Part shown: in pieces, positions 15,005-40,690 of the stretch
How the letters are laid out: each line of letters starts with the position of its first letter
How positions within the stretch are numbered: position 1 is the stretch's first letter
From: Bacteroidia bacterium
Lineage (GTDB): Bacteria > Bacteroidota > Bacteroidia > Flavobacteriales_D > Crocinitomicaceae
NCBI GenBank assembly: GCA_030426825.1
Contig: JAUHXX010000001.1
Span: 1-53,344, forward strand
DNA length: 53,344 nt
Direction of reading: 5' to 3'
Position numbers and translations under genes: made by a program
Notes under the pieces: generated by a model
Database searches by the model: none
Told to the model about the DNA's origin: nothing
The model's input: only the letters and a program-made list of their open reading frames with translations

Positions 15005-15045
15005 ATAAATAGAACAGTTCGCTATACTAAAAAGTTACTTTCAAT

Positions 15046-15078
15046 AAAAAATGGGCTTCCTTTAGGAGGCCCATTTTT
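15046..15078. terminator. Intrinsic terminator (U-tracts on both strands)
   Basis: A6-TGGGCTTCC-ttta-GGAGGCCCA-T5. Confidence 0.8.
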
Positions 15079-15128
15079 CAACAGTAAGTAGCGTTCAAGG
15101 CTTTGAGCGCTGTGTAGAGTTTCTGAGT

Positions 15129-15206
15129 TTAATTGACTAGGTGGATCACCTCCACATTTGCGCACACGAAAACTGTTTTAATTTCAGTTGCAACAAGATT
15201 AGTCAT
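15129..15206 (-). CDS. Candidate 25-aa small protein MTNLVATEIKTVFVCANVEVIHLVN
   Basis: ATG...TAA ORF below the ORF-track cutoff, A-rich upstream region, followed by a hairpin and a terminator. Confidence 0.45.
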   Translation of the reverse strand: MTNLVATEIKTVFVCANVEVIHLVN

Positions 15207-15510
15207 GATGGTCTTTTTAAAAGCCGTTAGCAAGAAATGCTAAAAAAATGGGCAAGTGGCTTCGTTGGACTTTTAATTCGAATTTTCTTATTCAAATTTA
15301 AATTCAAGTCAAAAATAACGTACTCAGAATAGTCATTTTTACTTTCAATAGAATTTAAGTTATGCATTCATTTAAAAATCGAATTAAGCTTTTAACGGTT
15401 TCAAACTAGGATTTTAACAACCTGTTCTCAAGGTGATCGCCAAAAGTTAGGGCAATTTACAACAAAATACTTTACAGCACAAATAATTTTTACGGCTTAA
15501 AAGCAATCTA

Positions 15511-16161
15511 TTAATAAACCCGAATTTTTTTAATTTTAGAGCCAACGTTAAAGTCAATAAAATCTATTGGTTCTAGATCTGATGATCCCGTTGGGTTGAT
15601 GTTACAATCAGCTCCGTCTAGAATAAACTGAACATCCTTTAATTCATCTGTTTCCATCACATATCTATCACTGATGTATGAATACCAGATGTGAGCATCC
15701 GGGTAGGCTACTTGAAACTCTTCAAGAGTAGAGCCAACTCCTACACCTTTGGATGTTTCATAATAATTAGACAACACCAACATTTCTTGAATATCTTTAT
15801 CTTCATGGTGTTCATCATCCATTTGATGATCCATTATTAACTCCAACACATCTTCAAGCTGATTGAAAATAACATTGTGAGTCAGCTCTGGACCTGGCTC
15901 TCCTTCGCTCATTTCTGACTTCACAAATTGACGCATCTTAAGTTCTGTTGGTAAAGTGGGCACTTCAGAACCTATGGTGAACAAGCCCACATTTTTGGAT
16001 GAAATGAGAATCGAATTGATTACCTCTGTTTCTTCTTCAGCAACGACAACTGAATCTTCCGTTACGGTCTCTGATACATTATTCGAATCCGTATTATCTT
16101 CATTTGATCCACAAGAAAAAAATAAGAATAACGGAATTCCGGTTATATAGATAGCTTTCAT
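15511..16161 (-). CDS. Hypothetical lipoprotein
   Basis: Lipobox FFSC; KGVGVGSTLEEFQVAYP; TATATTTG -7 element at 16184-16191. Confidence 0.8.
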   Translation of the reverse strand: MKAIYITGIPLFLFFSCGSNEDNTDSNNVSETVTEDSVVVAEEETEVINSILISSKNVGLFTIGSEVPTLPTELKMRQFVKSEMSEGEPGPELTHNVIFNQLEDVLELIMDHQMDDEHHEDKDIQEMLVLSNYYETSKGVGVGSTLEEFQVAYPDAHIWYSYISDRYVMETDELKDVQFILDGADCNINPTGSSDLEPIDFIDFNVGSKIKKIRVY

Positions 16162-16234
16162 GATTTTAGGGTTTAGGCTTTTTCAAATATAGTCAAACAA
16201 AGCATGCAAAGCAATAGCAATCAGTCAAATAAAC

Positions 16235-16816
16235 TTATCCGTGAATTGAAGCTTTTTGACCATACGATTGAATGATTTGTTCTTCAAATACCAGCCATTC
16301 ATTCCAACGTTGAGTTACCTTTTCTATATCCCCGTACTGCTTAGCAAAACCTAAAAACATGGTGTAATGATTCGCCTCTGAAATCATTAGCTTGCGATAG
16401 AATTCAGCCAATTCTGGATCCTTAAAGTTCTCTGACAGCACTTTAAAACGTTCACAACTTCTAGCTTCAATCAGTGCCGAAAACAACAGTCGATCAATAA
16501 AACAATCCAATCTATCCCCTCCTTTTTCACAAAACTTGTAGAGACGATTTACATAATCATCCTTCCGTTCTCTTCCCAATTCAAGCCCTCTTTTTTTAAT
16601 GATTTCATGCACCATTTTAAAATGCTCAAGCTCTTCATCAGCCAGTTCAAGCATAGCATCTACCAAATCAGTTTTTTCAGGATTTAAAGTAATTAATGAA
16701 ATGGCATTTGTTGCAGCCTTTTGCTCGCACCAAGCATGATCGGACAGAATTTCCGAAATATCATTTTCAACTATATTCACCCAACGAGGGTCAGTCTTTA
16801 ATTTCAATCCTAACAT
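16235..16816 (-). CDS. miaE: tRNA-(ms2io6A37) hydroxylase
   Basis: DHAWCEQKAA, EELEHF, LIEARSCERF, SEANHY di-iron motifs; start at MLGLKL. Confidence 0.95.
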   Translation of the reverse strand: MLGLKLKTDPRWVNIVENDISEILSDHAWCEQKAATNAISLITLNPEKTDLVDAMLELADEELEHFKMVHEIIKKRGLELGRERKDDYVNRLYKFCEKGGDRLDCFIDRLLFSALIEARSCERFKVLSENFKDPELAEFYRKLMISEANHYTMFLGFAKQYGDIEKVTQRWNEWLVFEEQIIQSYGQKASIHG

Positions 16817-16893
16817 GCTTTTTTCTTTCAAAATTAAGAATAAATGATTTCGGTAAAATAAATCTGTTCCCGAAACGACTTAATGAAGTACAT

Positions 16894-17106
16894 ATGAAAC
16901 TATATAACTTTAAAACCAATATTACGAGTAAAAAGAAAGCGCAAAATTTAATGCTCTTGTTACAGAATTACTTTAATATCATATCTGCCGAAATTGATTT
17001 TGAAAAGATGAAAGGACTTATGAAAATAGAATCACCTGAACTTTCACCAATCAAGGTCACCAAAGTTCTAAATGAATTTGGATACACTTGTGAGGAAATT
17101 AATTAA
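16894..17106 (+). CDS. Small HMA/copper-chaperone-fold-like protein (70 aa)
   Basis: FKTNIT...IDFE...MKIES...LNEFGYTCEEI; this is the 3' part of the 16696..17106 ORF. Confidence 0.65.
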   Translation: MKLYNFKTNITSKKKAQNLMLLLQNYFNIISAEIDFEKMKGLMKIESPELSPIKVTKVLNEFGYTCEEIN

Positions 17107-17443
17107 TCCTAGCGTCTATTATGGCTATTAAGTCATGCAAATTCAAGTCTTTTAATTCGGAAGAAGCAACCAATTGTTCTATATTCTCTGAGTTCTCTAA
17201 CAAAACAACTGGGCAATTAAATTTTTTCTCCGCGGCTGATCGTTGATTGCAATATTTAAACTCGGTATTCACCTTGATTTCCGAAATGAAGTTTGCCCAA
17301 TCTTTCTTGCTTCCAAAATTCCCATGAGTTATGGAGCATAAATCGCAGGCATAGGTTTTGGGAGAAAACACTTTATGTAAAAAATCAACAGATTGATTGA
17401 ACATGCCTGACTTAGCATTATAAATGAAAATTAGCTTTTGCAT
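17099..17443 (-). CDS. Conserved hypothetical protein with CxxC (thioredoxin-like)
   Basis: IFIYNAKSG...HKVFSPKTYACDLCSITHG...CPVVL. Confidence 0.75.
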   Translation of the reverse strand: MQKLIFIYNAKSGMFNQSVDFLHKVFSPKTYACDLCSITHGNFGSKKDWANFISEIKVNTEFKYCNQRSAAEKKFNCPVVLLENSENIEQLVASSELKDLNLHDLIAIIDARIN

Positions 17444-17452
17444 GACCTAGTT

Positions 17453-17486
17453 AAAATAACAAAGCCCAACGATTGTCGGGCCTTGT
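17453..17486 (-). terminator. Intrinsic terminator
   Basis: ACAAGGCCCGAC-aatc-GTTGGGCTTTGT-TATTTT; fully paired (two G-U) only on the minus strand. Confidence 0.75.
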
Positions 17487-17562
17487 ACACTACTTACTTT
17501 GGAATTACATACTGCTTTTGAAAAACGTTTTTCTCTACTTACAGAAAACCATGAAAAAACTC
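17453..17562 (-). ncRNA. Candidate small RNA (~105 nt) or attenuated leader
   Basis: Bounded by a TATATTTG -7 element and a 12-bp terminator stem; no meaningful ORF; two GTAAGTAG copies. Confidence 0.55.
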
Positions 17563-17567
17563 TATCT

Positions 17568-17601
17568 CAAATATAGCATTCATTTTAACACTAAAAACAA
17601 A
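17568..17601 (-). promoter_or_regulatory. Bacteroidota promoter (TTTG -33, TATATTTG -7)
   Basis: TTTG at 17601-17598 and TATATTTG at 17575-17568, 22-nt spacer. Confidence 0.6.
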
Positions 17602-19610: not shown

Positions 19611-21920
19611 TTGATTAAAAAATTCAACGATACTAGAATTAACTTTAAATTGACGGTTGCCTTTTTCACAATCGCCTTTTTATCAATATTGGTAATTGGT
19701 CTACTCTCCTATTTTTCTGGAAAAAAATCTCTCGAATTAGAATCCTTTAATCGTCTTACAGCAGTAAGAGAAATGAAGGCTACTCAAATAGAAGATTATT
19801 TCTCTGACATTACTAATCAACTCATTACATTCTCAGAAGACCACACTGTTGTAGATGCGATTAAAGATTTTCAAAACGGATATGATTCTTTATTGATTCA
19901 GCTTAATGTGAATGCTGGAATATTAGATTCTGCTAGTATAAGACTAAAAAATTACTATCAAAACGAATATCTTCCACGATTAAATCACAATGTCCAAATC
20001 TCTGAAGATGTTGAACACCACTGGCCTAAAGACCAAACAGCAGTGTTATTACAAGACATCTTCATTTCGAACAACAACAATCCTGTTGGAAAAAAACACT
20101 ACCTCAACCAAACTAACAATCAATGTTCTTACGGAGAAGCTCATGCCATTTATCATCCTTTGATTCGTTCTTATCTTGAAAAATTTGAATACTACGATAT
20201 TTTTTTAGTTGACCATAATACCGGCCGCATTATTTACTCGGTTTATAAAGAGGTCGATTTTGGGACGTCTCTTATTGATGGGCCTTACGCAAACTCTAAC
20301 TTAGCCAGGGCCTTCAATGCTGCCAATGAGTCCACTGACAGGGATTTTGTAAAGCTTGTAGACTTTGAACCTTATCATCCTTCTTATAATGCGCCTTCTT
20401 CATTTATCGCCTCTCCCATTTTTGAAGGTGAAGAAAAACTAGGAGTATTAATTTTTCAAATGCCCATTCAGAAAATCAATGAGATCATGACAAATCGCCA
20501 CGAATGGGCTGATGTAGGTCTAGGTGAAAGTGGAGAAACCTATATTGTAGCAGACGATTTCACATTAAGAAATCAATCCAGGTTCTTTATTGAGGATAAA
20601 GAAAATTACTTCAAAATGATTAAGGAAATTGGGGTTCCAGAGACCACAATTGCGCAGATTCAAAATTTTGAATCAACTGTTGGTTTGCAACCTGTGAAAA
20701 CCTTTGGTACTGAGGCTGCTTTAAAAGGCGAAACCAATACTGAAATCTTCAATGATTATAGAGGCGTACCTGTTTTATCATCATATAAACCATTACAAAT
20801 CCAGGATATGCATTGGGTAATCATGAGCGAAATAGACCGTGACGAGGCATTTGCACATGTTTATGATTTACGGCGTAATATCATTGTCATATTTATCGGG
20901 CTTCTAATATCTATCATATTTGCTTCGTTTTTTATTTCCAAAAAAATTACCAAACCTATTAAAATTCTTACCGGAAAAGCTCAAGAATTGGCCGGGGGTA
21001 ACTTAGATGTTGAAATTGAAAGCAATAGTAAAGACGAGATAGGACAATTAGCAAGTAGCTTTTCAGACATGCAACACTCAATCCATGATTTGGTGCATAA
21101 TTTGGAAGACAAGGTTCAAGAAAGAACACAAGAAATCCAACAACAAAAAGAAATTCTGGAGATCAAAAATCAGGAAATATTAGATTCTATCAATTATGCT
21201 CTGAGATTACAAAAAGCCATTATCCCTACTGAAGCTAAAGTTAAATCTGCGTTGCCGGAAAGTTTCGTTTATTTTAAACCTAAAGATATCGTTTCTGGAG
21301 ATTTTTACTGGATGAATCAACTTGAAGATAAAGTATTGATCGCAGCAATTGATTGCACAGGTCATGGAGTACCTGGAGCAATGGTTAGTGTTGTTGGAGC
21401 AAATGGTTTGAATCGTTGCGTAAAAGAATTCAATCTCAACAAACCGTCTGACATCTTGGACAAATTAACAGATCTCGTAAAAGAAACTTTTGAGTCTGGA
21501 GAAGACAAAGTAAAGGACGGAATGGATGGCGCGTTAATCTCAATTGACTTAAAGAATAGAAAGCTTGAGTATGCGGGAGCAAACAATCCTCTTTGGATTA
21601 TTAAACAAGAAGGTGCTTTGATTGAAATTAAAGCTAACAAACAACCGATTGGCGATTTTGATTTTAGAAAACCGTTTGAAAACCATACCATTCAACTTTC
21701 AGAAGGAGATCAGGTTTATATTTTTTCGGATGGATATGTTGACCAATTTGGTGGTCCAAAGGGCAAAAAATTTAAATATAAAACCCTCAAAACTCATTTA
21801 GAGGACAACAGACACCTGTCTATGGATGAGCAAGTTAAAGTCTTAGACAAAAGATTTCAAGAATGGAAAGGGAGTTTGGAACAACTTGATGATGTTTGTG
21901 TCATAGGAGTAAGATTTTAG
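19611..21920 (+). CDS. Membrane sensor Ser/Thr phosphatase (Cache-like sensor, HAMP, SpoIIE/PP2C)
   Basis: Two TMs around a large periplasmic domain; HAMP (DEIGQLA); IVSGDFY, DCTGHGVPG, DGMD, FSDG, DDVC. Confidence 0.92.
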   Translation: MIKKFNDTRINFKLTVAFFTIAFLSILVIGLLSYFSGKKSLELESFNRLTAVREMKATQIEDYFSDITNQLITFSEDHTVVDAIKDFQNGYDSLLIQLNVNAGILDSASIRLKNYYQNEYLPRLNHNVQISEDVEHHWPKDQTAVLLQDIFISNNNNPVGKKHYLNQTNNQCSYGEAHAIYHPLIRSYLEKFEYYDIFLVDHNTGRIIYSVYKEVDFGTSLIDGPYANSNLARAFNAANESTDRDFVKLVDFEPYHPSYNAPSSFIASPIFEGEEKLGVLIFQMPIQKINEIMTNRHEWADVGLGESGETYIVADDFTLRNQSRFFIEDKENYFKMIKEIGVPETTIAQIQNFESTVGLQPVKTFGTEAALKGETNTEIFNDYRGVPVLSSYKPLQIQDMHWVIMSEIDRDEAFAHVYDLRRNIIVIFIGLLISIIFASFFISKKITKPIKILTGKAQELAGGNLDVEIESNSKDEIGQLASSFSDMQHSIHDLVHNLEDKVQERTQEIQQQKEILEIKNQEILDSINYALRLQKAIIPTEAKVKSALPESFVYFKPKDIVSGDFYWMNQLEDKVLIAAIDCTGHGVPGAMVSVVGANGLNRCVKEFNLNKPSDILDKLTDLVKETFESGEDKVKDGMDGALISIDLKNRKLEYAGANNPLWIIKQEGALIEIKANKQPIGDFDFRKPFENHTIQLSEGDQVYIFSDGYVDQFGGPKGKKFKYKTLKTHLEDNRHLSMDEQVKVLDKRFQEWKGSLEQLDDVCVIGVRF

Positions 21921-22068: not shown

Positions 22069-23334
22069 ATGAATAAGCTTTTACTCTCTATCCTTATTTT
22101 AGGGGCAACTTTTATTGCTCATACTCAGCCTGCAAATGATGCTTGTTCTGACTCACAGCGGCTTTGCGCAAACCAACCACTGCAAGGAACAACAGCTGCC
22201 GCAACAGTTGACCCCGCTTCTGATTTAGATTTCTGTACAGTAAATACAGCAACCGTTTGGTATCATTTTACTACTAATGCAGCAGGAGGTAACGTTACAA
22301 TAGACATCACGAACATGTCTTTTAACCCGGGAGCCACATACGGACAAACCATTGACGCCATTATTTATTCAGCAACCTCACCTTGTGTACAAGGAACTAT
22401 GAACCCTGCGTCGGCCTGTGGAAACAGTGGTGTAGACTTCAGTGTAACAACCTTTGCTGCCTTGAATCCAAACACCACCTACTACCTAATGATCAATGGT
22501 AACACAAATGGAATGGCAAATTCTGCAGAATGCGATTTCACAATTGATATTTCAGGCCCGGCAGTAGACGCAACTTTCCCAACAGCATCAATTTCTACAA
22601 TGGATTCGGTTTTATGTGAGGGAGATGATGTACCAGTTGAAACAATCATTGCCAATTGCTCCGATACAGCCACATTTGATTGGTATTACAATAACACGCT
22701 CATCCTTTCTGGTCCAACCAATGATTTTTCAACTACGAGTTTAACTGAAGATGGATACCTTAAACTAATCATCAACTGCGGCTCAATCTGCACTTATTCA
22801 GACACTACTGATAGTATTTTTTACGAAGTTACTCCAATAGGTGCTAATGCCGGACCCGACAAATTTATTTTAGATGGGGAACTCGCTAACATTGAAGGCT
22901 CAGGGAATGGTACACCTTTGTGGAGCCCAACTGGCACATTAACAGACCCATCTAGTTTTACTCCCACAGCAAATCCAAGTGTAACGACAACCTATTTTTT
23001 AACTGTTAACAACGGGAGCTGCACAGCAACAGATAGTATGAATGTTTTTGTAGGAGAAGTGGTCACGATTTACAGTGGGTTTTCTCCTAACGGGGATGAT
23101 ATTAATGACAAATGGGTCATCAAAAACAGTGCTCAATACCCTGACATGGAAGTGACAATTTTCGACAGATCTGGACAGAGAATTTATCACACAACAGGTT
23201 ACTCAACTCAAGAAAAATGGTGGGACGGAACCTATAAGGGAAAGGCACTACCAGTATCAACTTATTTTTATGTCGTTGATCTAAAAATTGGTGATGAAGG
23301 TATTTTCAAAGGTCAAATAAACTTGATTAGATGA
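22069..23334 (+). CDS. T9SS cargo with type B (gliding-motility-associated) CTD
   Basis: Signal peptide, PANDAC, Ig-like modules, FSPNGDDINDKW...IFDRSG...WDG...TYFY. Confidence 0.9.
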   Translation: MNKLLLSILILGATFIAHTQPANDACSDSQRLCANQPLQGTTAAATVDPASDLDFCTVNTATVWYHFTTNAAGGNVTIDITNMSFNPGATYGQTIDAIIYSATSPCVQGTMNPASACGNSGVDFSVTTFAALNPNTTYYLMINGNTNGMANSAECDFTIDISGPAVDATFPTASISTMDSVLCEGDDVPVETIIANCSDTATFDWYYNNTLILSGPTNDFSTTSLTEDGYLKLIINCGSICTYSDTTDSIFYEVTPIGANAGPDKFILDGELANIEGSGNGTPLWSPTGTLTDPSSFTPTANPSVTTTYFLTVNNGSCTATDSMNVFVGEVVTIYSGFSPNGDDINDKWVIKNSAQYPDMEVTIFDRSGQRIYHTTGYSTQEKWWDGTYKGKALPVSTYFYVVDLKIGDEGIFKGQINLIR

Positions 23335-24275
23335 GGATAGGATCGATAATCATATTGTGCTCTCTGCTCTTTTCTTTCAATGGAATTGCCCAACAATTGG
23401 AACATTATACCCAGTATCAACACAACCAATTTGCATTCAATCCAGCCGTGGCTGGAACTAAAAACTGCCTAGATATTAGAACGGGTTATCGCTTTCAATG
23501 GGCTGGAATAGATGGAGCACCTCAGACAGGATTTATCAATGCTCACGCTCCCTTAAGATTAGGTAAAAAAAGAAATACTTTTGGGCCGAAACATGGAATC
23601 GGTGGTCAAATAAAGCGGGACGTTTTTGGCCCTTTCTCTTTTCTTAGCTTGCATGCTGCCTACGCCTTACATTTGCCCGTCTCAAGAAAATGGACCGCCT
23701 CATTAGGACTGTCGTTTGGATTCAAACAATCTGTCTATGATGCCGCCAACATAACAACGGAAATCGCAGATCCTGCCTTTCCTGGGACAAGTCAATCGTT
23801 TATCGTTTTTCCTGATGCGAAACTTGGGGCTTGGGTAACCAACAAAAAAACTTATGTTGGATTATCACTGCATAATTTATTTGGAAATACATTTTCGAAA
23901 ATTGGGCCAGGTGCAAAAGCCCAAAGACATGTCTATATTACAGCAGGCCACAGTTTTCCGCTTGAAAAAAACTGGTCGTTCATTCCTTCGTTATTTCTAC
24001 TTTGGACAAAATCAACTCCTATTGATTTTCACTTGAGTGCCCTGCTTGATTTAAATAATAAGTTTTCTTTTGGCTTGGGAATGCGAAGAACGGATGCCGT
24101 TACCGCACAAGTGCGAGTAAAATTCTTTAATTGGATATCTTTAGGGTATTCATTTGACTTTATCATTTCAAAACTAAATGGCAATATGTGGCAATCACAT
24201 GAAATTACTGGTGGATTCAATTCGTGCTCAAATTATGGTAATTCAAGCACGACCGATTGCCCTAGTTTTGAATAA
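23331..24275 (+). CDS. PorP/SprF family T9SS outer-membrane protein
   Basis: YTQYQHNQFAFNPAVAG, YRFQWAGIDGAP, GYSFD, SHEI. Confidence 0.92.
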   Translation: MRIGSIIILCSLLFSFNGIAQQLEHYTQYQHNQFAFNPAVAGTKNCLDIRTGYRFQWAGIDGAPQTGFINAHAPLRLGKKRNTFGPKHGIGGQIKRDVFGPFSFLSLHAAYALHLPVSRKWTASLGLSFGFKQSVYDAANITTEIADPAFPGTSQSFIVFPDAKLGAWVTNKKTYVGLSLHNLFGNTFSKIGPGAKAQRHVYITAGHSFPLEKNWSFIPSLFLLWTKSTPIDFHLSALLDLNNKFSFGLGMRRTDAVTAQVRVKFFNWISLGYSFDFIISKLNGNMWQSHEITGGFNSCSNYGNSSTTDCPSFE

Positions 24276-24351
24276 AACAACCTTTGACGCTATCCTTTCG
24301 TTTTGTATATTGAAGTCGAATAGGAGGATAGCCAACAAATATTTGACTTAA

Positions 24352-27300
24352 ATGACACCTACAAAATTACACACTATGAAAAAAATGAAGTCCTCATTTT
24401 TATATTCAGTTGTAGTTCTTATTGCTTTCACATTTATCACAAACTCTTCCTTTGCGGCGGACCTTTATTGGGTGAATGGCTCTGGAAATTGGAACGACTC
24501 AAACCATTGGTCAACAAGTTCTGGAGGCTCCACATCAAGCGCAATACCGGGCCCAGGAGACAACGTGCATTTTGACTTGAATTCCTTTCCGGCAACAAAT
24601 AATGTTATTACAATCGCCCAAAACATTTCTATCAACAACGTCAAAATTAACGGTGCCCATTTTTTCGTTTTAGACGCACCCAATCACAACCTTGAGGTAA
24701 AAGGAGATTTTACAGCCAACACAAAATTTCACCTTAACGCTGATGAATTGACCTTTAACGGAAATGGAAATCATGTAATTAACACGAACAATTGTGACAT
24801 TTCAGCTACCGTTGCTTTTGAAAACGGAACTTGGAATTTAAACGGGCACCTACAAACGACCGCATTGAAATCAATTTATTTTAATGGAGGAATAATCCAT
24901 TCTAACGGGTTCAGTATTGCTACCGAATCTGTAGTAGCTAATGTAGACCCTGTTCAATTAGATTTTACGAACTCCTATATCGTTGGATATAATTCAATTG
25001 ATTTAAGCCAAGCCTCAAATATTGGCGGAAATGCCATCTTTTTCACTGTGGACAATGAGGTTCCAGCCTCTAAAAAAGGAGGGTTCAATAATGCAACTTT
25101 TCAACGAGACCAAACTGTAAATTGTCAGTTTATGGGAAGTCCAACCGGCTTAGTTGTTGATATTACAACGATCGATTATGTTGGTGGATTTAATGTTTCC
25201 TGTGATGGAGTCTGTGATGGTGAAATTACAATTTCTGCCGCTGGTACCGCAGGGCCATATTCATATAGTTTAAATGGAAGCCCTTATACTTCTCAGACTG
25301 TTTATTCTGGACTTTGTGGTGTAACTTATACTATCTCTGTTAAAGACTCGTCTCAAGAAATTGGGGTTGGTTCTGGAGTATTTGTTAATTGTAATACTAC
25401 TGAGAACTTGCAGCCTCCTGGTCCACTTATCTTAGATGAACTTGCTCCTCCCACTGATGTGTCTTGTTTTGGAGTATGTGATGCAGATGCGTTTACCGAT
25501 CCTTTTGGTGGACAAGGTCCATATACGGTAACTTGGGCTACCAGTGGAGAAGTAACACCCTTCCCTACTTTCTTGTGTGCAGGACCAAATCCTGTTGAAA
25601 TTGTTGATGCAAATGGCTGTATTTTAAATACTTCTATCAACATTGGTGGACCACCAGACATTACAGCAATTCTTAGCATTAATGAACCAACATGTAACGG
25701 TGATTGTGATGGTGAAGTTAACATAATTCCAGGTGGTGGAAACGGAGGCCCTTATTCATATGTTTGGACGCCCGTTCCGACTTCTGGTCAGGGCACGGAG
25801 CCAGGAATAGGGTTTTGCGCTGGACTTATAAATGTAACAATTGGGGATGTAGCTGGCTGTACTAAAGACACCACGGTGACTATGACCGAACCATTAGTCT
25901 TAACTGCAGCACCTACTGCAGATGCGCCAACAAGTTGTTTTGGCTCTTGCGACGGACAAGCAAGCGCTAACCCATCTGGGGGTGCAGGCAATAACACATT
26001 TGAATGGTTCACTTGTGCTGGTGTATCTACCGGCATAACTGATGAAAATCCCAACACGCTTTGTGCCGGAGATTATTATGTGGTAGTTACTGATCAAAAT
26101 GGACTAGGATGTTCTTTTCAAAGTGGTTGTATTACCATAACTGAACCAACAGAAATTGACGCTACTGCTGATGCTTATCAGGTTTCTTGTTTTGGAGTGT
26201 GTGATGGATCTGTTGATGTTGACGCTACCGGAGGTGTTCTTCCTTACACTTATTCCTGGGTAACTGTTCCAGGAGGAACTGGAGTTGGAGCCAACGATAC
26301 CTTATTTGGACTTTGTCCCGGATTATATGAAGTAATCGTTACGGATGCAAACCTTTGTAATTCAACACCAGATACGGTAGAAATTCTTGAACCAGCACCA
26401 GTCACCTTATTGCTTAATGGAACCGACCCAACTTGTTATGACCTATGTGATGGATCTGTTGTTGCCACTCCAGGAGGAGGTACGGCTCCATATGGATTCA
26501 ATTGGATACCAGCACCAGGAGCTGGACAAGGAACTGCGAACGGAACCAATATGTGTGCAGGAACATATGATGTAACCTTAACCGATCTTAATGGATGTAA
26601 TGTTACAGAGCAAGTCATCTTAAATAATCCGCCTCAGTATGATATAACTACGGCCCAAACCAACTTACAGTGTGCTGGAGATGCAAACGGGACAATTGAT
26701 GTGACCGTAAACTCCGGAGGTTCTGGAGTTGGTTATACTTATACCTGGGTACCTGCTGCACCTATTGGTGACGGCACTCCTAATGTGTCAGGTCTAACTG
26801 CGGGTGTTTGGTGCGTTACTATTCAAGATGATCAACTCTGTGATACCACACTTTGTTTCACAATTTCAGAACCAAACCCATTAACAGCAAACGCATCAGT
26901 TATATCGCATGTCACCTGTTTTGCAGATTGTGACGGTTCCGGACAAGTAGTTATTAATGGAGGAACTGCTCCTTATGTGATTTCTTGGGCCCCAGGAGGA
27001 CAATCTTCACAAGTAGCAAGTAACTTGTGTGCAGGAAATTATACTGTAACGGTAACAGATGCAAATTTATGTTCTGTAAATGATAACATCACAATCAACC
27101 AACCCACTCAATTCGACCTGAGTATGTCTCAAACCGACATTAGTTGTTTCGGTGATTGTGTAGGTGATGCAACCATTACAGTGAATAGCGGCGGAACTCC
27201 TCCATACGTATATCAATGGAATGATCCACTATTACAAACCAACCCAACAGCCATCAATCTATGCGCAGGAAATTATACTGTAACAGTTACCGATCAAAAC

Positions 27301-30300
27301 CTATGTGATACAGTCATAGCTTATACTATAATTGAGCCAGCTCAGATCGTAATCGATACCAACGTTACCAATTCTTCTTGCTTTGGTACGTGCTCAGGTG
27401 AAGCAAATATCACCTTAGTTGGTGGAACTGGAGCATACAATTTCGAATGGTTTGATGTTGCTACTGGCCTTCCGCTTGGTGTTAATAACGATTCAATTTC
27501 AGGTCTATGTCCTGGACAATATTATGCACAAGTGACGGATGCTGCACTTTGTGTAGTAAATTCTGATACCATAACAATTACTGAACTTCCACCAATAAAC
27601 ACGTCTATAATATCTATTGGTGATGCTACTTGTGGTGTATGTGATGGAACGGCTGAGGTGCTGGCAACAGGAGGTACAGGAACGTTTACATATACTTGGA
27701 CTCCGGTGCCAGGAACTGGTCAAGGAACAACAACTGTAACTGGACTATGTGCTGGTGCTTATTCAGTTGCCGCAACAGATCAAGCTGGTTGTACCGCAAA
27801 CATTGCAGTTAACGTTAATAGTGTAGCCTTAGAAGTAACAACAATGGACTCTACAGACATCACTTGTTTTGGGTTGTGTGATGGAACCGCCACAATAAGT
27901 TACAATGTTTTAGACCCTCCTTACACAGTAACCTGGTTCGATAACTTAACTGGATTACCAATAGGAATTGTAGACAACCCCGCTTCACAACCCAGTACAG
28001 CGACAGGTCTATGCGCTGGAGAATATCTTGCGGTTTTGACGAATCAATCTGGATGTGTAACCTCTGACACCATACAAGTTAACGAACCGCCTCAAATTAC
28101 TGGAAGCGTTACACCAACCCCTGTTACATGTAACGGAGCCTGTGACGGATCAGCAGCAGCAGTTGCTGCAGGCGGCACCGGTGTATTGACTTATACATGG
28201 GGACCTGGCCTTCCAGGTGCTGGTCAGGGAACGCCAAATGCAAGTGGAATGTGTGCAGGTAACTGGACTGTTACAGTAACAGATGCGCAAGGTTGTACGG
28301 CTGCATTCCCAACAACTATTTCAGAACCAGTTGTACTTGCCATTACAAGCGAAAACTCTACTAATATCAGTTGTTTCGGTGCAAATGATGGAACTGCAAC
28401 AATAATTCATTCTGGTGGTATCCCACCGTACAATTATCAATGGATAGATTGTAATACAGGTTTACCAATTGGACAAACCTCACAAATGGCAACGAACCTA
28501 CCAGCGGGAGATTATCAAGTTGTTGTAACTGATGCTAACGGTTGTAACGTTACAAGTAACTGCCTACCTGTAATTGAACCCTCTGCTATCACGGCAAATT
28601 TAAATGCCAGTCCGGTAAACTGTTTTGGATTTTGTGATGGTCTTATTGATGTCGTACCGGCGGGAGGATCTGCCCCATATTTTTATCAATGGCAAGATGA
28701 ATTCTTTGTTGACCTCCCAGGTCAAACTAATGACACGTTAAATAATGTTTGTCAAGGAATGTATAATGTTGTAGTAACGGATTTCAATGGCTGCTCAATG
28801 ACTTTTGGGCCTGTAGACATGACCTCTCCAACCGACCCGTGGAATGTCACAACCAGCCAAACAAATGTTACCTGTTCTGGTAATTGTGATGGTACAGCAG
28901 GAGTCATTGTTGTCGCTGGAAACAATCCGCCATATACTTATCAATGGGATGATCCTTTGGCACAAATTACTCCAACAGCAACTTTTCTGTGCCCTGGAGT
29001 TTATACCGTAACCATCACGGATGCTAGTATTTGTGACACTACTATTCAATTTACAATTGTAGATGCCAATCCAATAATAGCCAATGCAACTATCAATAAT
29101 GTGCAATGCTTTGGGGATTGCACTGGGTCTGTAACTGTTGCACCAACTGGTGGTGATGGCACATACACTGTTAATTGGTCCGATTTACAAACTGGGCTGA
29201 CTGCTTCAAATTTATGTAGCGGAGCAATAACTGCTACAATTACTGATGGCGGAGGATGTTTTATTGATACTACTATCAATATTACTGAACCACCTGCATT
29301 AGTTGCAAATTCAACATTCTCAAATAATGCCAGTTGTGGGGCATGTAATGGTAGTGCAACAGTAAACATGGGTGGTGGAGTTGGACCTTATACTTACGAT
29401 TGGACGCCAGACCCTGCTGGAGGTGATGGAAATAATAATGCGACAGGCCTGTGTCCTGGTGTCGTTTCAGTATTGGTTACTGATGCCAATGGATGTACTT
29501 TAACAGAAGTCTTTGCTATATCAGATATCAATTCTGAAATTCTAACTATGGATTCAATTGATGTTAGTTGTTTTGGTGCCTGTGATGGATCCGCAATAGT
29601 TAACTACGTATGTAGTGACCCAGGATGTACAAATCAATGGTATGATGGAGCCACAGCAACCCCAATAGCTGGTGAAACAGGAACTACTTTGGCAAATCAA
29701 TGTGCTGGTGATTATTATGTTGAGGTCACAAACGCTTCTGGTTGTGTTGCTGTTGGGCTCACAACTATAACAGGGCCAACACAAATAATAGCCAACGAAA
29801 ACATTTCGCAAATTACATGTAATGGCGCTGGTGATGGTCAAATAGATCTTTTCCCTAGTGGGGGTTCTGGTGCAGGATATACTTATGTTTGGAATCCTGT
29901 TCCTCCAAATGGACAAGGAACAAGTCAAGCGATCGGTCTTGGAGGAGGTATCTGGTGTGTAGATATTACTGACAGTGATGGTTGTACAGAAAACTATTGT
30001 TACAATTTAACAGAGCCAACAGCAATCGTAATTACCCCAACTATAACAGACCCATTATGTAATGGTAGTTGCAATGGAATTATTTCGGTTTCCGTAAGTG
30101 GCGGAACAGGAGGTTATAACTTCCAATGGTTTGATGGCGGGGGTGCTCCAATTGGCACAAATAACCCAATTATTGGATCATTGTGTGCCGGTAATTACTC
30201 CGTAGATGTTACTGATGCAGGTGGATGTACTCAAACGTTGAATGTTACACTTACAGAGCCGAATCCAATCAGCACCGCTATTGCAAGCACAGATGTACAA

Positions 30301-33300
30301 TGCTTTGGCGCTTGTGATGGAACCATAACAGTAACCCCGGCGGGAGGATTTCCACCATATACCGTCAATTGGTTTAACTCAACTACTGGATTATTAATTG
30401 GACAATCAGGAGTAACGGCATCTAATTTATGTCCTGGTGACTTCCACGCTGTGATTACGGATGCCAATGGGTGCAGCTTTACATCAGCAACAACAACAAT
30501 CACCGAACCGGCAGAATTAACGTGGACATTAACAACAAATGACGCTTCATGTTTTGGAGTCTGTGATGGAGACGCCACAATTACACCTCTAGGGGGCACT
30601 CCTGCTTATATTTATGAATGGCTAGATATTACAGGAACACCAATAGTGGGAGGAACGAATCCTATGGTTGCAAACCTTTGTGCTGGAAATTACACAGTAC
30701 AAGTAACCGACCAAAACGGTTGTACATCAGGACAAGAACCAGTGGTTATTAATGAATTTCCTCAAATTACAGGTAACGTCTTCAGTAATGATGCAACTTG
30801 CGGATTAAATGATGGAAATGCAACAGTGTTTGCCAATGGAGGTAATCAACCATTTGTATATCAATGGTATGACAACTTGCTCAATCCATTAGTTGGAGAA
30901 ACCAACAATGTATTATTAAATGCTGCTGCCGGTACTTACTTTGTAGATGTTACAGATCAAAATGGCTGTACAACACAATTTCAAGCCAACATTTCAAATA
31001 TCCCTTCAACAACTCTTACATGGGATGCCGTTAATCACCCAAGTTGTTTTGGAGCGGCTGATGGAAGTTTAGCTATTACAACTACAGCCGTTAGTCCACC
31101 TCTGGTTTATCAATGGAATCCTGGAGGATTAATCGCAGAAGATCCAACCGGATTAACTGCAGGTAATTGGACTCTTCAAATCACGGATGCTTTGGGCTGC
31201 ATTAATTTTTATGACACTACACTTATTGACCCAAGCCCAATTATAGTTACTCCTACCACTACTCCTACAGACTGTGGCCAATGTAATGGTGCGATAACGG
31301 TGGCCGTAAGTGGTGGAACCGGCACATTAAACATTCTTTGGAATACATCCGATACTGGACCTACAATTACAGGATTATGTTCTAGTATTTATGAAGCACA
31401 AGTGACAGATCAAAACGGTTGTCAAGTTACTGAACCAATTGATGTTCCAAATAATGGAGGCCTCACGGAAGATGTAGTAATTCAGGCAATTACATGTGCT
31501 GGGTCTTGTGATGGTCAAGCAACTGTAACAGGGATTGGGGGAACTCCTCCATATACTTACTTATGGCTACATGATAATTCAACAGCACAAACTCAAACAA
31601 ACTTATGTGCTGGATCATATTTCTGCGAGATTACTGACGCCGCAGGTTGTGTGAGATCTATTGAAGTAGAAATGACGGATCCTAATGCTATAGACGCTAC
31701 TGCATTAATTTCTAACCCAGCATGTGGTGTTAATGACGGATCTATTACAGTAAGTTCGAGCAATGGTATTTTACCTCATACTTATCTTTGGAACACATTA
31801 GATGTCACACCGGTAATTTCAAACCTTGGTGCTGGAACTTATACATTAACGATTACAGATGCAGCTGGATGCTCTCAAGACTTTGTGTATGGGCTTAGCA
31901 ATTCAGATGCAGCGATAGCTATGTTAAGCAGTATAGATGTAAACTGTCATGGTGTATGTGATGGACAAGGAGACACGCTTTCTGTAACGGGAGGAACAGG
32001 ACCTTACTCATTTGATTGGTTGGATAATACCGGTTCCTCTACTGGAATATTAACTCCTTTAGCAACGGGATTATGCGCTGGTGATTATATGTTACAAGTT
32101 ACGGATGCATTAGGTTGTATTTCATTTGAAAACATTACCATCAATGAACCGGATACAGTAATACTCAATCCATTGTTCAGTGTTGACCCATCATGTGCTG
32201 GATTATGTGACGGTGAATTAATTGCGAATCCAATTGGCGGAACATTACCGTTTGGATTCCTATGGGACGATCCAGCCGCTCAAAGCACCATTACAGCAAC
32301 AGGACTTTGTGACGGTAATTTTAATGTAGATATTACTGATGCAAACGGTTGTACGTTTACTCAGTCTGGAACTGTAACGGAACCAAGCGCTATTACCGTG
32401 GTTACTGATAGTATAATTGATGCTACATGTTTAAACTCACCAGACGGTGAAATCTATATAACTATTTCAGGCGGAACTCCGGGATATACAACTCAGTGGG
32501 TTTCACAAACACTCACTGATACAATACCTGATGAGGACCCAACTGGGTTGTTGCCAATGGATTATTATTTAACTATAACGGATGCTAACGGCTGTATGGT
32601 CATGGACACCATGTCTGTTGATACCTTGCTAGTTGTTTTAGTAGATGCAGGTTTAGACACTCTTTTATGTTCTGGGTTTGGAACAAGTTTATTTGCTACT
32701 TCAAATGTTGACCCAATGGGCGATTATACTTGGTATGACATCAGCATGACTACCAACTTAAGTGACACAAACGAACTTGTAATCAACCCTGGCAACCCAG
32801 GCGTTACAGATTATATTATTGAAGTCACTTTAAACGGATGCTCTCATTCAGATACAATTTCAGTTACAACAACCTCTCCATTCACTGTAGATGCTGGACC
32901 AGATGTAGACATGTTTGCTACTCAAACCGAATCCATTGGAGGGAATCCAACATCCAATGAAGTCACGCACGTGTATTCATGGACTCCAAGTCTATTCTTA
33001 TCTGATACCACCTCAGCTAATCCAAGTGTGATTCAGCCTACTTCGTCAAATTGGTATTTCGTTACCGCAACAGATACAAACGGGTGTACCAACATAGATT
33101 CTATGTATGTTGAACTGCAACCTGACATAATAATTCCTGATGGTATTTCACCAGACGGAAATGGGCTTAACGATACTTGGATACTCGACTTTATGGAACT
33201 ATATCCGGGTGTAAGCATGGAAATTAATGTTTATAATAGATGGGGAGAGCCGTTGTTCACATCTGACGAAACTTACCAAGATGATTGGGGTGGAACAACA

Positions 33301-33405
33301 AAAGACGGTAAAAAACTTCCAGCAGGGACTTACTATTATACTATAACAATTGATCATGAGGACTTCCCAGATCCGTTTACTGGTCCGATAACAATAATGT
33401 GGTAA
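24352..33405 (+). CDS. Giant SprB-repeat surface adhesin with type B CTD (3017 aa)
   Basis: YWVNGSGNW N-terminal domain; ~31 Cys-rich repeats (CxGxCDG...GG..PY.Y.W...LCAG.Y.V.VTD.NGC); ISPDGNGLNDTW CTD. Start may be 24376. Confidence 0.92.
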   Translation: MTPTKLHTMKKMKSSFLYSVVVLIAFTFITNSSFAADLYWVNGSGNWNDSNHWSTSSGGSTSSAIPGPGDNVHFDLNSFPATNNVITIAQNISINNVKINGAHFFVLDAPNHNLEVKGDFTANTKFHLNADELTFNGNGNHVINTNNCDISATVAFENGTWNLNGHLQTTALKSIYFNGGIIHSNGFSIATESVVANVDPVQLDFTNSYIVGYNSIDLSQASNIGGNAIFFTVDNEVPASKKGGFNNATFQRDQTVNCQFMGSPTGLVVDITTIDYVGGFNVSCDGVCDGEITISAAGTAGPYSYSLNGSPYTSQTVYSGLCGVTYTISVKDSSQEIGVGSGVFVNCNTTENLQPPGPLILDELAPPTDVSCFGVCDADAFTDPFGGQGPYTVTWATSGEVTPFPTFLCAGPNPVEIVDANGCILNTSINIGGPPDITAILSINEPTCNGDCDGEVNIIPGGGNGGPYSYVWTPVPTSGQGTEPGIGFCAGLINVTIGDVAGCTKDTTVTMTEPLVLTAAPTADAPTSCFGSCDGQASANPSGGAGNNTFEWFTCAGVSTGITDENPNTLCAGDYYVVVTDQNGLGCSFQSGCITITEPTEIDATADAYQVSCFGVCDGSVDVDATGGVLPYTYSWVTVPGGTGVGANDTLFGLCPGLYEVIVTDANLCNSTPDTVEILEPAPVTLLLNGTDPTCYDLCDGSVVATPGGGTAPYGFNWIPAPGAGQGTANGTNMCAGTYDVTLTDLNGCNVTEQVILNNPPQYDITTAQTNLQCAGDANGTIDVTVNSGGSGVGYTYTWVPAAPIGDGTPNVSGLTAGVWCVTIQDDQLCDTTLCFTISEPNPLTANASVISHVTCFADCDGSGQVVINGGTAPYVISWAPGGQSSQVASNLCAGNYTVTVTDANLCSVNDNITINQPTQFDLSMSQTDISCFGDCVGDATITVNSGGTPPYVYQWNDPLLQTNPTAINLCAGNYTVTVTDQNLCDTVIAYTIIEPAQIVIDTNVTNSSCFGTCSGEANITLVGGTGAYNFEWFDVATGLPLGVNNDSISGLCPGQYYAQVTDAALCVVNSDTITITELPPINTSIISIGDATCGVCDGTAEVLATGGTGTFTYTWTPVPGTGQGTTTVTGLCAGAYSVAATDQAGCTANIAVNVNSVALEVTTMDSTDITCFGLCDGTATISYNVLDPPYTVTWFDNLTGLPIGIVDNPASQPSTATGLCAGEYLAVLTNQSGCVTSDTIQVNEPPQITGSVTPTPVTCNGACDGSAAAVAAGGTGVLTYTWGPGLPGAGQGTPNASGMCAGNWTVTVTDAQGCTAAFPTTISEPVVLAITSENSTNISCFGANDGTATIIHSGGIPPYNYQWIDCNTGLPIGQTSQMATNLPAGDYQVVVTDANGCNVTSNCLPVIEPSAITANLNASPVNCFGFCDGLIDVVPAGGSAPYFYQWQDEFFVDLPGQTNDTLNNVCQGMYNVVVTDFNGCSMTFGPVDMTSPTDPWNVTTSQTNVTCSGNCDGTAGVIVVAGNNPPYTYQWDDPLAQITPTATFLCPGVYTVTITDASICDTTIQFTIVDANPIIANATINNVQCFGDCTGSVTVAPTGGDGTYTVNWSDLQTGLTASNLCSGAITATITDGGGCFIDTTINITEPPALVANSTFSNNASCGACNGSATVNMGGGVGPYTYDWTPDPAGGDGNNNATGLCPGVVSVLVTDANGCTLTEVFAISDINSEILTMDSIDVSCFGACDGSAIVNYVCSDPGCTNQWYDGATATPIAGETGTTLANQCAGDYYVEVTNASGCVAVGLTTITGPTQIIANENISQITCNGAGDGQIDLFPSGGSGAGYTYVWNPVPPNGQGTSQAIGLGGGIWCVDITDSDGCTENYCYNLTEPTAIVITPTITDPLCNGSCNGIISVSVSGGTGGYNFQWFDGGGAPIGTNNPIIGSLCAGNYSVDVTDAGGCTQTLNVTLTEPNPISTAIASTDVQCFGACDGTITVTPAGGFPPYTVNWFNSTTGLLIGQSGVTASNLCPGDFHAVITDANGCSFTSATTTITEPAELTWTLTTNDASCFGVCDGDATITPLGGTPAYIYEWLDITGTPIVGGTNPMVANLCAGNYTVQVTDQNGCTSGQEPVVINEFPQITGNVFSNDATCGLNDGNATVFANGGNQPFVYQWYDNLLNPLVGETNNVLLNAAAGTYFVDVTDQNGCTTQFQANISNIPSTTLTWDAVNHPSCFGAADGSLAITTTAVSPPLVYQWNPGGLIAEDPTGLTAGNWTLQITDALGCINFYDTTLIDPSPIIVTPTTTPTDCGQCNGAITVAVSGGTGTLNILWNTSDTGPTITGLCSSIYEAQVTDQNGCQVTEPIDVPNNGGLTEDVVIQAITCAGSCDGQATVTGIGGTPPYTYLWLHDNSTAQTQTNLCAGSYFCEITDAAGCVRSIEVEMTDPNAIDATALISNPACGVNDGSITVSSSNGILPHTYLWNTLDVTPVISNLGAGTYTLTITDAAGCSQDFVYGLSNSDAAIAMLSSIDVNCHGVCDGQGDTLSVTGGTGPYSFDWLDNTGSSTGILTPLATGLCAGDYMLQVTDALGCISFENITINEPDTVILNPLFSVDPSCAGLCDGELIANPIGGTLPFGFLWDDPAAQSTITATGLCDGNFNVDITDANGCTFTQSGTVTEPSAITVVTDSIIDATCLNSPDGEIYITISGGTPGYTTQWVSQTLTDTIPDEDPTGLLPMDYYLTITDANGCMVMDTMSVDTLLVVLVDAGLDTLLCSGFGTSLFATSNVDPMGDYTWYDISMTTNLSDTNELVINPGNPGVTDYIIEVTLNGCSHSDTISVTTTSPFTVDAGPDVDMFATQTESIGGNPTSNEVTHVYSWTPSLFLSDTTSANPSVIQPTSSNWYFVTATDTNGCTNIDSMYVELQPDIIIPDGISPDGNGLNDTWILDFMELYPGVSMEINVYNRWGEPLFTSDETYQDDWGGTTKDGKKLPAGTYYYTITIDHEDFPDPFTGPITIMW

Positions 33406-33416
33406 AACGAAATCAG

Positions 33417-34337
33417 ATGAAAAAATTATTAATTATACCTTTTTTGTTCTTTTCGTTTAGCGTTATAGGACAGCAATTACCTCAGTTTACTCAATACATG
33501 TTTAACCAGTACGCCTTTAATCCGGCCTATGCTGGTCTAAACAAATATTGGGAAGCTACAACCGTTAACCGGTATCAATGGTTGGGAGTAACAGATGCAC
33601 CTAGAACATTTACTTTAAGCGCACATGGACCTTTAAAAAATGAAAAAGTAGCCTTAGGAGGATATGTATACACAGATGTTGTCGGTCCAACCAGAAGAAT
33701 TGGTTTCCAAGCATCTTTCACTTATCATTTAAAGCTGACTGAGAATTTGAATATGTCATTTGGACTTTCTGGTGGTTTCAACGAATGGTTATTAGATGCA
33801 GATAAAATCACGACCTATCATCCAAATGATTTTTATTTTTCTAATGGTCTTTTAAAGTCGTTTGAGCCTGACGCTAAATTTGGATTTTATCTTTATCATC
33901 CTGATTGGTATTTTGGGGCCTCAATTGGCCAAATGTTCCATAATAAAGTTTCTTTCCTTGAAACACAAACAAGCTCAGAAAGCTATATGGAAGACCACTT
34001 TTACTTCAACGGTGGATATAAGTTCAGGATTGGAGATGATTGGGGAATTGAACCAACAGCTATGCTTAAAATGGGGTTGCCGGCACCAGTTAAATTCGAT
34101 TTAGGAGTTCGTGGTATTTATAAAGAAACTGTATGGTTAGGTATCGGTTGGAGAAGTAATGATGCCGTAAATGCAATTATCGGTTATAAATACAAAGACA
34201 TGTTAACCATTGGTTATGCCTATGACCTAACTATCACCAAGCTTAAAAACTTCAACACGGGTTCACACGAAATTATGTTGGGTGTTAAATTCGGTAAAAC
34301 TGGTGGCCAAAACACCAACAAACCTTCGTTGGAATAA
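33417..34337 (+). CDS. PorP/SprF family T9SS outer-membrane protein
   Basis: QLPQFTQYMFNQYAFNPAYAG, RYQWLG, GYAYD, GSHEIML. Confidence 0.94.
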   Translation: MKKLLIIPFLFFSFSVIGQQLPQFTQYMFNQYAFNPAYAGLNKYWEATTVNRYQWLGVTDAPRTFTLSAHGPLKNEKVALGGYVYTDVVGPTRRIGFQASFTYHLKLTENLNMSFGLSGGFNEWLLDADKITTYHPNDFYFSNGLLKSFEPDAKFGFYLYHPDWYFGASIGQMFHNKVSFLETQTSSESYMEDHFYFNGGYKFRIGDDWGIEPTAMLKMGLPAPVKFDLGVRGIYKETVWLGIGWRSNDAVNAIIGYKYKDMLTIGYAYDLTITKLKNFNTGSHEIMLGVKFGKTGGQNTNKPSLE

Positions 34338-34377
34338 ATTTGATTATCTTCATGCACCTCTTAAACCTAATGTGCGT

Positions 34378-40162: not shown

Positions 40163-40504
40163 ATGAATCTATTTAAGAGTATAATATTAGTTTTAGCCAT
40201 GTCCAGTTTTACTGGATTTAGCCAGAATGTTGTGACTATTCCAAACATTTTCACTCCAAATGATGATGGTGATAATGATGTTTTTAGAATACGTGATGCA
40301 GAAGCATTTGATGAGCTAACCTGTACGATTTACAATCGTTATGGAGAGCCCGTATATCGATTTTATGGTTTAAATGGCTCTTGGGATGGCTATAGTCATG
40401 CAGGTGTCAAAGTAAGCGCCGGAGTATACTTTGTAATACTAGAAGTTTCTGCTTCTGATGGTGAAAAAAAGACACAACAAGCGACTTTACAAGTCCACTA
40501 TTAA
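40163..40504 (+). CDS. Stand-alone type B CTD protein (signal peptide plus CTD only)
   Basis: IPNIFTPNDDGDNDVF...IYNRYG...WDG...GVYF directly after the signal peptide. Confidence 0.85.
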   Translation: MNLFKSIILVLAMSSFTGFSQNVVTIPNIFTPNDDGDNDVFRIRDAEAFDELTCTIYNRYGEPVYRFYGLNGSWDGYSHAGVKVSAGVYFVILEVSASDGEKKTQQATLQVHY

Positions 40505-40507
40505 TTC

Positions 40508-40690
40508 CTATTCCAACAGCAGTTCAATTTGATTATTCTCATCCGCCCTATTCTTCAAGGTGTGATTGAGATAGATTATTAATCCCAACAGGACAATTGC
40601 TATAATGATTTTTCTAATTAGCGCCCATGGGATCTTTCGCTCGTGTTTTTTAAACCGCTTGAGGTTAATTTTTGAGTCATTCTCTGTCAT
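40508..40690 (-). CDS. Small single-TM hypothetical protein (60 aa)
   Basis: MTENDSKINLKRFKK...IIIAIVLLGLIIYL; ATGA overlap with the upstream stop codon. Confidence 0.65.
   Translation of the reverse strand: MTENDSKINLKRFKKHERKIPWALIRKIIIAIVLLGLIIYLNHTLKNRADENNQIELLLE

Follow-up and report, generated by a model that had tools for sequence, protein, structure and literature searches.

A conserved pair of intergenic RNAs in one Crocinitomicaceae genus, apparently an undescribed variant of the small RNA-sponge arrangement

Introduction

Sponges of bacterial small RNAs (sRNAs) act by seed occlusion or by induced decay, according to excerpts from PMC12721325. Examples, again from excerpts of the respective papers, are RosA of Bacillus subtilis, which shortens the half-life of RoxS (PMC8216469), QrrX of Vibrio cholerae, which pairs with and destabilises the Qrr RNAs (PMC9732341), and CrfA of Caulobacter, which inactivates SisA-D (PMC12559287). 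Here we report on two intergenic RNA genes, called RNA A and sRNA B, in a stretch of 53,344 nucleotides (nt) from a Bacteroidia bacterium of the family Crocinitomicaceae (assembly GCA_030426825.1, contig JAUHXX010000001.1, positions 1 to 53,344; hereafter the window), which apparently form a real, conserved and undescribed variant of an sRNA-sponge module. Like QrrX, RosA and CrfA, RNA A is predicted to be a separate RNA gene with extended, conserved complementarity to an sRNA; unlike them, it has conserved open frames and a 5' motif of the kind found in mRNA leaders, its main contact would invade the terminator stem of the sRNA with a separate contact on the 5' end, and no Hfq was found in this genome. 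Judged by absent Rfam matches alone, without direct alignment, RNA A would fall outside the QrrX, RosA and CrfA families.

GibS and FopS are Bacteroides sRNAs that place a 5' seed on start codons (excerpts from PMC7366714 and PMC11697453). sRNA B is like them in its -7-box promoter, its single-stranded, conserved 5' seed predicted to lie over start codons and its terminator hairpin, and it comes from the same phylum and from a genome encoding one RRM protein; unlike them, it is single-copy, without multicopy paralogues, and belongs to one genus. Comparison of B with the GibS and FopS families in Rfam gave no match at gathering score or at E<=10, in an Rfam copy that may lack a FopS model. The word 'sponge' is absent from the FopS paper (PMC11697453) and from a 2026 review of gut-commensal sRNAs (PMC13750123), and occurs once in PMC7366714. 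The literature that we searched, mostly open-access, contained no sponge in Bacteroidota and nothing on small RNAs of Crocinitomicaceae. To our knowledge, Hfq is missing from Bacteroidota, and very few sRNAs of this phylum have been characterised.

Type I toxin-antitoxin loci with partly complementary antitoxins, such as TisB/IstR-1, ZorO/OrzO and TxpA/RatA, resemble the present locus in their complementarity of ~18-20 nt and in a structured leader around a small open reading frame (ORF). The locus differs from them in that there is no conserved hydrophobic toxin, the two RNAs lie ~2 kb apart on the same strand and the antitoxin candidate is conserved independently. Unnamed structured 5' elements have been reported in flavobacteria (excerpts from PMC9723704). 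As in leader-peptide attenuators and riboswitch-like 5' motifs, RNA A has a structured motif at the transcript start and then an upstream ORF; unlike in these, no long gene follows, and the motif is absent from Rfam.

Results

The genome that holds the window (G000) measures 3.6 Mb and is 93% complete. It was compared with seven further genomes of its genus (G001-G007), which is known mainly through assembled genomes, and with two metagenome loci (L058 and L060), giving ten loci with sRNA B. Eight of these carry both RNAs, namely seven of the eight genus genomes and L058; all are from one genus and hence non-independent.

A first-pass annotation, made from the letters of the window alone, had proposed that two intergenic RNAs, if both are transcribed from the minus strand, pair over a 19-nt site. 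That match was borne out. The 19-mers at 15083-15101 (+) and 17480-17498 (-) are identical at 17 of 19 positions. If both RNAs are read from the minus strand, 17 Watson-Crick pairs would form, along with one G-U and one A-A, and the two minus-strand RNA genes are themselves supported by sequence comparison. Across the 3.6-Mb genome, allowing up to two mismatches, the 19-mer matches at these two places only; a dispersed repeat was ruled out, as there is no third genomic site within that limit. Both the conserved complementarity and the co-occurrence that the annotation had looked to were found: in 8/8 loci with both RNAs, 18-19 of the 19 positions of the A arm, site 2, can pair with B, and no locus was seen that had the 3' sites of A but lacked B (8/8 A loci carry it). 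The elements of sRNA B and RNA A are as follows.

17568..17575, minus strand: TAnnTTTG (-7 box) promoter of sRNA B, TATATTTG, kept in 8/8 genus genomes while the flanks vary
17452..17563, minus strand: sRNA B, ~110 nt, single copy, 93% mean column identity over 8 genomes, fold z = -3.3
17544..17563, minus strand: invariant 5' 20 nt of B (10/10 copies), the predicted seed, whose first 7-8 nt pair with site 1 of A
17480..17498, minus strand: B arm of the 19-nt duplex, from the sequence match; its last 7 nt are the base of the B terminator stem
17452..17486, minus strand: intrinsic terminator of B, 12-bp stem and U-rich tail, from hairpin prediction
15452..15459, minus strand: promoter-like box of RNA A, TAAATTGC, a TAnnTTGY variant, with similar boxes before the homologues
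15040..15447, minus strand: RNA A, ~410 nt, predicted translated sponge of B, from 8 aligned homologues; ends placed by promoter box and 3' hairpin
15389..15446, minus strand: 5' hairpin motif with covarying outer stem and CCUUGA and GAAACC loop sequences, from alignment and model search; absent from Rfam
15379..15387, minus strand: 9-bp long-range helix, 5' strand, shortly before the ORF1 start; 97% of cells paired, two-sided change at 2 pairs
15273..15281, minus strand: 3' strand of the same helix, within ORF1, from the consensus fold
15227..15367, minus strand: ORF1, 46 codons, frame conserved but peptide not; no Pfam match
15129..15206, minus strand: ORF2, the 25-codon small ORF of the first-pass annotation, position kept but peptide not; no Pfam match
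15116..15122, minus strand: site 1, AAACUCU, complementary to B bases 1-7, present in 8/8
15090..15111, minus strand: weak hairpin, from folding; part of site 2 is buried in it, with a 7-nt toehold left free
15083..15101, minus strand: site 2, the part of A that would form the 18-19-bp duplex with B, a conserved match
15047..15078, minus strand: terminator-like 3' hairpin of A that could act in either direction, hairpin in 8/8, clean U tail in 5/8

In the 3' half of RNA A, conservation is concentrated on what faces B. Columns of site 2 are 93% identical across the eight A homologues, with 13/19 invariant, as against 61% in the flanking columns inside ORF1, 56% from the end of ORF1 through ORF2 and 65% in the 3' hairpin, and none of 300 shuffles of B reached 17 Watson-Crick pairs in 19 against A. 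The predicted duplex has an energy of -28.0 to -33.1 kcal/mol in seven genomes, with a net gain after unfolding of -9.9 to -14.6 kcal/mol in the eight loci, and the toehold regions are predicted to be mostly unpaired (0.53-0.91). With B's own opposite strand set aside, A was the best partner of B among 2062 seed-bearing genomic sites (-29.4; next -25.9). Such variation as there is in site 2 would mostly keep the pairing: one G-U is fixed, G002 and G004 each gain one G-U, G001 loses one terminal pair and G004 has one two-sided change, beside a 1-nt bulge. Of the compensatory change between the RNAs that the first-pass annotation had considered, this case with its bulge is the one true instance. 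Site 1 is predicted to make a second contact, with bases 1-7 or 1-8 of B (7-8 Watson-Crick pairs) in 8/8 loci, for which one shuffled tail has a 4% chance, and it covers bases 1-8 of the predicted 5' seed. In the 15090-15111 hairpin, site 2 is the 3' arm, and 4 nt separate its end from the 15047-15078 hairpin; the annotation had placed it there correctly, while its description of the latter hairpin as a switchable terminator was not borne out.

sRNA B begins 4 nt behind its TATATTTG box, which fits the Bacteroidetes -7 promoter consensus TAnnTTTG at position -12 to -5 (excerpts from PMC7366714 and PMC9723704). It was found in 8/8 genus genomes and in two further metagenome copies, the other 19 of 21 metagenome pattern matches being due to chance; three of nine pattern matches in the genome collection had no match to the B model. 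Each genome has one copy by both model and pattern searches, with no paralogue in G000. Outside the genus, B was detected neither by model in 114 genomes nor by pattern in 243 other genomes of the family, G034, G075 and G068 gave nothing below E 0.2, and in the genomes searched B is confined, as far as these models and patterns reach, to one Crocinitomicaceae genus. Rfam gave no match at gathering score for the window or seven related loci, and at E<=10 unrelated chance matches only. A sigma-70 promoter scan returned 9 sites against 9.9 expected, with a scan model unsuited to Bacteroidota. The first 20 bases of B could pair with A-rich sequence around a start codon, the start codon is covered in most of the best 15 duplexes of its 5' end among 2686 ORF starts, and many of the products have signal-peptide-like ends; the 5' end of B is thus predicted to be a start-codon-pairing seed. 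A partial second copy of B's own pairing motif lies near its 5' end, at 17534-17542 (-), and is eroded in L058.

RNA A occurs in seven of the eight genus genomes and L058, always 1.6-2.5 kb from B and on the same strand. G007 and L060 cleanly lack it at this locus while having an intact B, and no relocated copy was found in G007, whose genome is 95% complete. Conservation of B runs end to end, also in these two of ten loci, whereas in the 3' half of A it is limited to the parts that match B. The G007 copy of B carries, within the 19-nt site, a substitution that would be a mismatch to A, yet keeps its terminator stem; B of L060 has no such substitution. The box of A, TAAATTGC, belongs to a TAnnTTGY-type variant described as SM5 (excerpts from PMC9723704). 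Transcription of A from the minus strand is supported by the G-U pairs of its 5' motif, by the promoter box at 24/28 loci of that motif and by ORF1.

Three features go beyond the first-pass annotation, namely ORF1 with its 46 codons, the RNA motif at the 5' end of A and the predicted contact of site 1 with the 5' end of B. In 8/8 homologues, ORF1 starts at an ATG 11-12 nt behind the helix and stays open for 43-51 codons, although shuffled ORF1 sequences have a 2-10% chance each of 42 open codons, and the distance from this ATG to the 3' strand of the helix takes five values of 83-98 nt that all differ by multiples of three. The ORF1 peptides share 16-49% amino-acid identity, with changes spread about evenly over the three codon positions; a mildly hydrophobic stretch (0.72-1.59) is present in seven of eight, and the window's ORF1 is without a hydrophobic segment (0.08). 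At the place of ORF2, an ATG frame of 22-34 codons is open in 8/8 (13-35% chance each, the interval having been chosen post hoc), with no conservation of the peptide among the eight homologues. Selection therefore seems to act on being translated and not on the peptide product, and the small ORF of the annotation is not supported as the functional product, since it keeps its position without conserving its peptide.

The 5' motif of A combines a covarying stem, the loop sequences CCUUGA and GAAACC and a variable inner hairpin. Five of the ten pairs of the outer stem changed on both sides, and its covariation score was reached by 0/500 column shuffles, a control that ignores kinship. A model built from 11 copies matched 42/151 family genomes at E<=0.05 and 10/151 order genomes at E<=0.01, the building sequences matching by construction, and the motif is spread over 17 of the 28 genera sampled. 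We read 28 motif loci other than A (among L107-L130, L135, L136, L138 and L145). The core is conserved in 27, a perfect TAnnTTTG box directly precedes 24 (0.6% expected; the box lies outside the model), a long ORF follows 26, within 160 nt for 24, and none has an anti-B site within 600 nt. Three motif-led products tested had lamin-tail and type IX sorting domains or SprB-like repeats (one SprB below the curated cut-off). An upstream ORF of 31-44 codons, starting 17-27 nt after the hairpin, the place of ORF1 in A, was present in 8/21 leaders examined. The copies closest to the motif of A come from five genomes outside the genus and all stand before the same type of gene, and that gene type has no motif in G000 and in 5/5 congeners checked, which suggests that the front half of A is a displaced leader of a secreted-protein gene. 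With no Rfam match, the motif is undescribed in the sense of being absent from Rfam; its novelty might be affected by the new RNAs and 5' elements listed for Flavobacterium psychrophilum (supplement of PMC9723704). Its place at the promoter of large secreted-protein genes makes it a candidate riboswitch or protein-binding element. In L127, L128, L122 and L129 the 5' strand of the outer stem resembles the B seed and its partner strand a start-codon context, possibly an AT-rich coincidence. Pairing of the B seed with the 3' strand of the outer stem was considered and dropped, as by eye it is not conserved.

Metatranscriptome contigs give a weak hint that A is expressed. Metatranscriptome X1 contains 57% of the words of the stretch, and its contigs over 15127-15372 have a depth of 433-751 against 5-78 for the other pieces listed (8 of 16), although contig depth cannot rank genes, give strand or ends, or exclude DNA; a second metatranscriptome study has low-depth contigs over A, and run X4 contributed no contig. 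The RNA contigs miss 17498-17588 and are uninformative on the expression of B, as short RNAs drop out of such libraries. In run X3, over 15316-15552, a second contig matches two pieces of 20-23 nt that lie 60 kb apart, most likely by chance and from another organism.

As an identity for A, 6S RNA was rejected, since the consensus fold is not a single ~180-nt rod and there is no model match: 6S-Flavo (RF01685) did not match at A, nor above cut-off in G000 or five relatives, the control genomes being equally matchless. In Bacteroidetes, 6S RNA presumably lies behind zapA. The gap behind zapA (L091-L095) is by eye too short for it in 5/5 relatives, and zapA was not found in G000; the 6S RNA of Crocinitomicaceae is unlocated or lost. 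The tmRNA is located elsewhere in the genome.

Four genes lie between the two arms and can be listed together.

15511..17443, both RNAs flanking: inter-RNA genes (216-aa unknown, miaE, 73-aa unknown, 114-aa unknown), each absent from some homologous loci

Because each is missing from some loci, these genes are not parts of the system. Outside the arms are DUF2461 on one side and, on the other, a 189-aa unknown gene and a family M20 peptidase that we take to be pepT. The genome encodes RNase III. The 73-aa ORF, at 16885-17106 (+), is without a Pfam match, is convergent with the 114-aa gene and shows 36-56% identity in six related loci. Elsewhere in the window, a type IX secretion cluster at 22069-36831 comprises a 3017-aa SprB-repeat protein and a CHU_C protein, with a PorP/SprF gene after each. 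SpoIIE-type phosphatase domains on opposite strands, at 19611-21920 and 40687-41229, explain several other inverted 17/19 matches of the window; the second is a stand-alone 180-aa ORF right behind a TPR gene, from which it may have been split. A 113-aa ORF at 40163-40504 is nearly all CHU_C sorting domain and directly follows a 935-aa S9 peptidase, possibly again a split gene.

Discussion

Sequence comparison supports the genes of both RNAs together with the promoter box and 3' hairpin of each, and likewise the 5' motif, the open frames and the two sites of complementarity. With moderate confidence, we read A as a translated sponge derived from a leader; it would bind B, block the first part of the seed and hasten the decay of B, in line with the sponge or regulator option of the first-pass annotation. 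One argument for it is the asymmetry of selection, B being conserved throughout even without A and the 3' half of A only opposite B. In this model, B would repress mRNAs by pairing of its invariant U-rich 5' end around their start codons, which is also the mode of action of GibS and FopS in Bacteroides. Nucleation on B would begin at the 7-nt toehold of A, which is single-stranded, and strand exchange would open the weak hairpin of A and the lower 7 bp of the B terminator stem to give 18-19 bp, after which AAACUCU of A would capture the first 7-8 bases of B. The duplex might then be cleaved by RNase III, or the loosened 3' end of B degraded, and the targets of B released. RNA A itself would derive from a secreted-protein leader, motif and upstream ORF, without its gene, and the passage of ribosomes, not the peptide, would set its stability or folding.

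Several observations weigh against this reading. In a single genome the 17/19 match is no better than chance: the window holds 30 inverted 17/19 pairs compared with 16-32 in four shuffles, and when the 8-kb region around the two arms was shuffled 60 times, such a pair arose in 26 of the shuffles. It is because the duplex is kept in all eight loci carrying both RNAs that the match rises above chance. Intermolecular compensatory change is thin, amounting to the one bulged case among eight related loci of one genus, and one duplex position is mismatched in 5/8. Sites 1 and 2 are not colinear with their partners on B, and simultaneous binding would need a looped geometry. The 15090-15111 hairpin folds better on the plus strand in 5/8 loci and equally well in three, and the window's 3' region also folds better on plus (-34.9 vs -26.6). 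The U-rich seed of B matches many ORF starts weakly, and its targets are predictions. None of the four tested leaders closest to the motif of A has an ORF1-like frame, which speaks against direct descent. Finally, we infer the A-B pairing, the strand and the direction of control from sequence.

Models with real A-B pairing are, taken together, very probably correct, and the direction of control may then be questioned. It is possible, though rather unlikely, that B regulates and A is the target, degraded by B via its 3' end and having its own job elsewhere, for example as an abundant decoy for a motif-binding protein or ligand. The pairing data fit either direction, and the motif, the long-range helix and the open frame that A keeps under selection would be superfluous for a pure sponge. 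G004 and G006 hold canonical leader copies of the motif besides A, while the model found no second copy to protect in G000, G002, G003 and G005, and the second site of A meets exactly the predicted 5' seed of B, which suits blocking of B. Control of read-through is improbable. Here A would be a long leader, and either B binding beside the 3' hairpin or ribosomes ending ORF2 would switch termination before the 189-aa gene and pepT. Site 2 does end a few bases before the hairpin, whose U tail is poor in 3/8 and which one RNA contig bridges, and most pepT genes at A-bearing loci are without a TAnnTTTG box within 60 nt. However, the gene behind A varies (the 189-aa gene in G000, G001, G003 and G006; pepT directly in G002, G004, G005 and L058), pepT is retained where A is missing, a box of its own precedes it in G000 and G007, and the consensus fold contains no conserved antiterminator helix. 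The antitoxin option of the annotation fared worse, and a type I system, with A as a toxin mRNA held off by the long-range helix and B as antitoxin, is very unlikely. The 18-19-bp complementarity, the structured leader caging a small ORF, the finding of A only at loci with B and the mildly hydrophobic stretches of most ORF1 peptides would suit it, but these peptides are poorly conserved, with changes over all codon positions and no Pfam match, the window's own ORF1 is non-hydrophobic, and B is conserved far past the pairing site and fully so where A was lost.

If the RNAs do not pair, which we regard as quite unlikely, the 19-mer may be a same-sense element, a sibling sRNA read from the plus strand at 15083-15125 or a protein-binding motif at both loci. 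Where the site hairpin has C-A mismatches on minus it has U-G on plus (5/8), the plus strand at the A site holds both B motifs, and the RNA contigs are strandless. Yet the two motifs stand in reverse order relative to B, a U-tailed hairpin lies directly before the site on plus, no proper TAnnTTTG box precedes it (a loose match in 2/8, inside the hairpin), and promoter, G-U pattern and ORFs place A on minus. That the 19-mers are a chance match, or inverted repeats bounding an invertible 2.4-kb segment, as the annotation had offered as an alternative, is highly improbable. The arms are inverted, and an inverted 17/19 match is common by chance in one window; against this, 8/8 loci and a colinear contig of a close strain show one orientation, the enclosed genes vary, the arms keep a fixed C/T difference in 8/8, and each arm sits inside a structured RNA gene that inversion would break. 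As the annotation had stated, no recombinase is nearby, with none among the 44 proteins scanned.

The sponge reading has a more elaborate form, which we put forward tentatively as an unlikely but specific proposal. A detached secreted-protein leader would have become a two-headed, translation-coupled decoy, the 5' end titrating a motif-reading factor and the 3' end disarming the start-codon-blocking B via seed and terminator, with ribosome traffic over peptide-indifferent ORFs setting its level. The class of sponges is well known, and this pair is limited to one genus. The locus nevertheless offers a sharply testable pair, since two contacts are predicted and one partner has been lost naturally in some loci, and a new leader motif at the transcript start of genes for type IX-secreted proteins comes as a by-product. 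If the two-headed decoy is true, it would be the first sponge described in Bacteroidota within the literature searched, and an example of a regulatory RNA whose origin from a leader can be traced.

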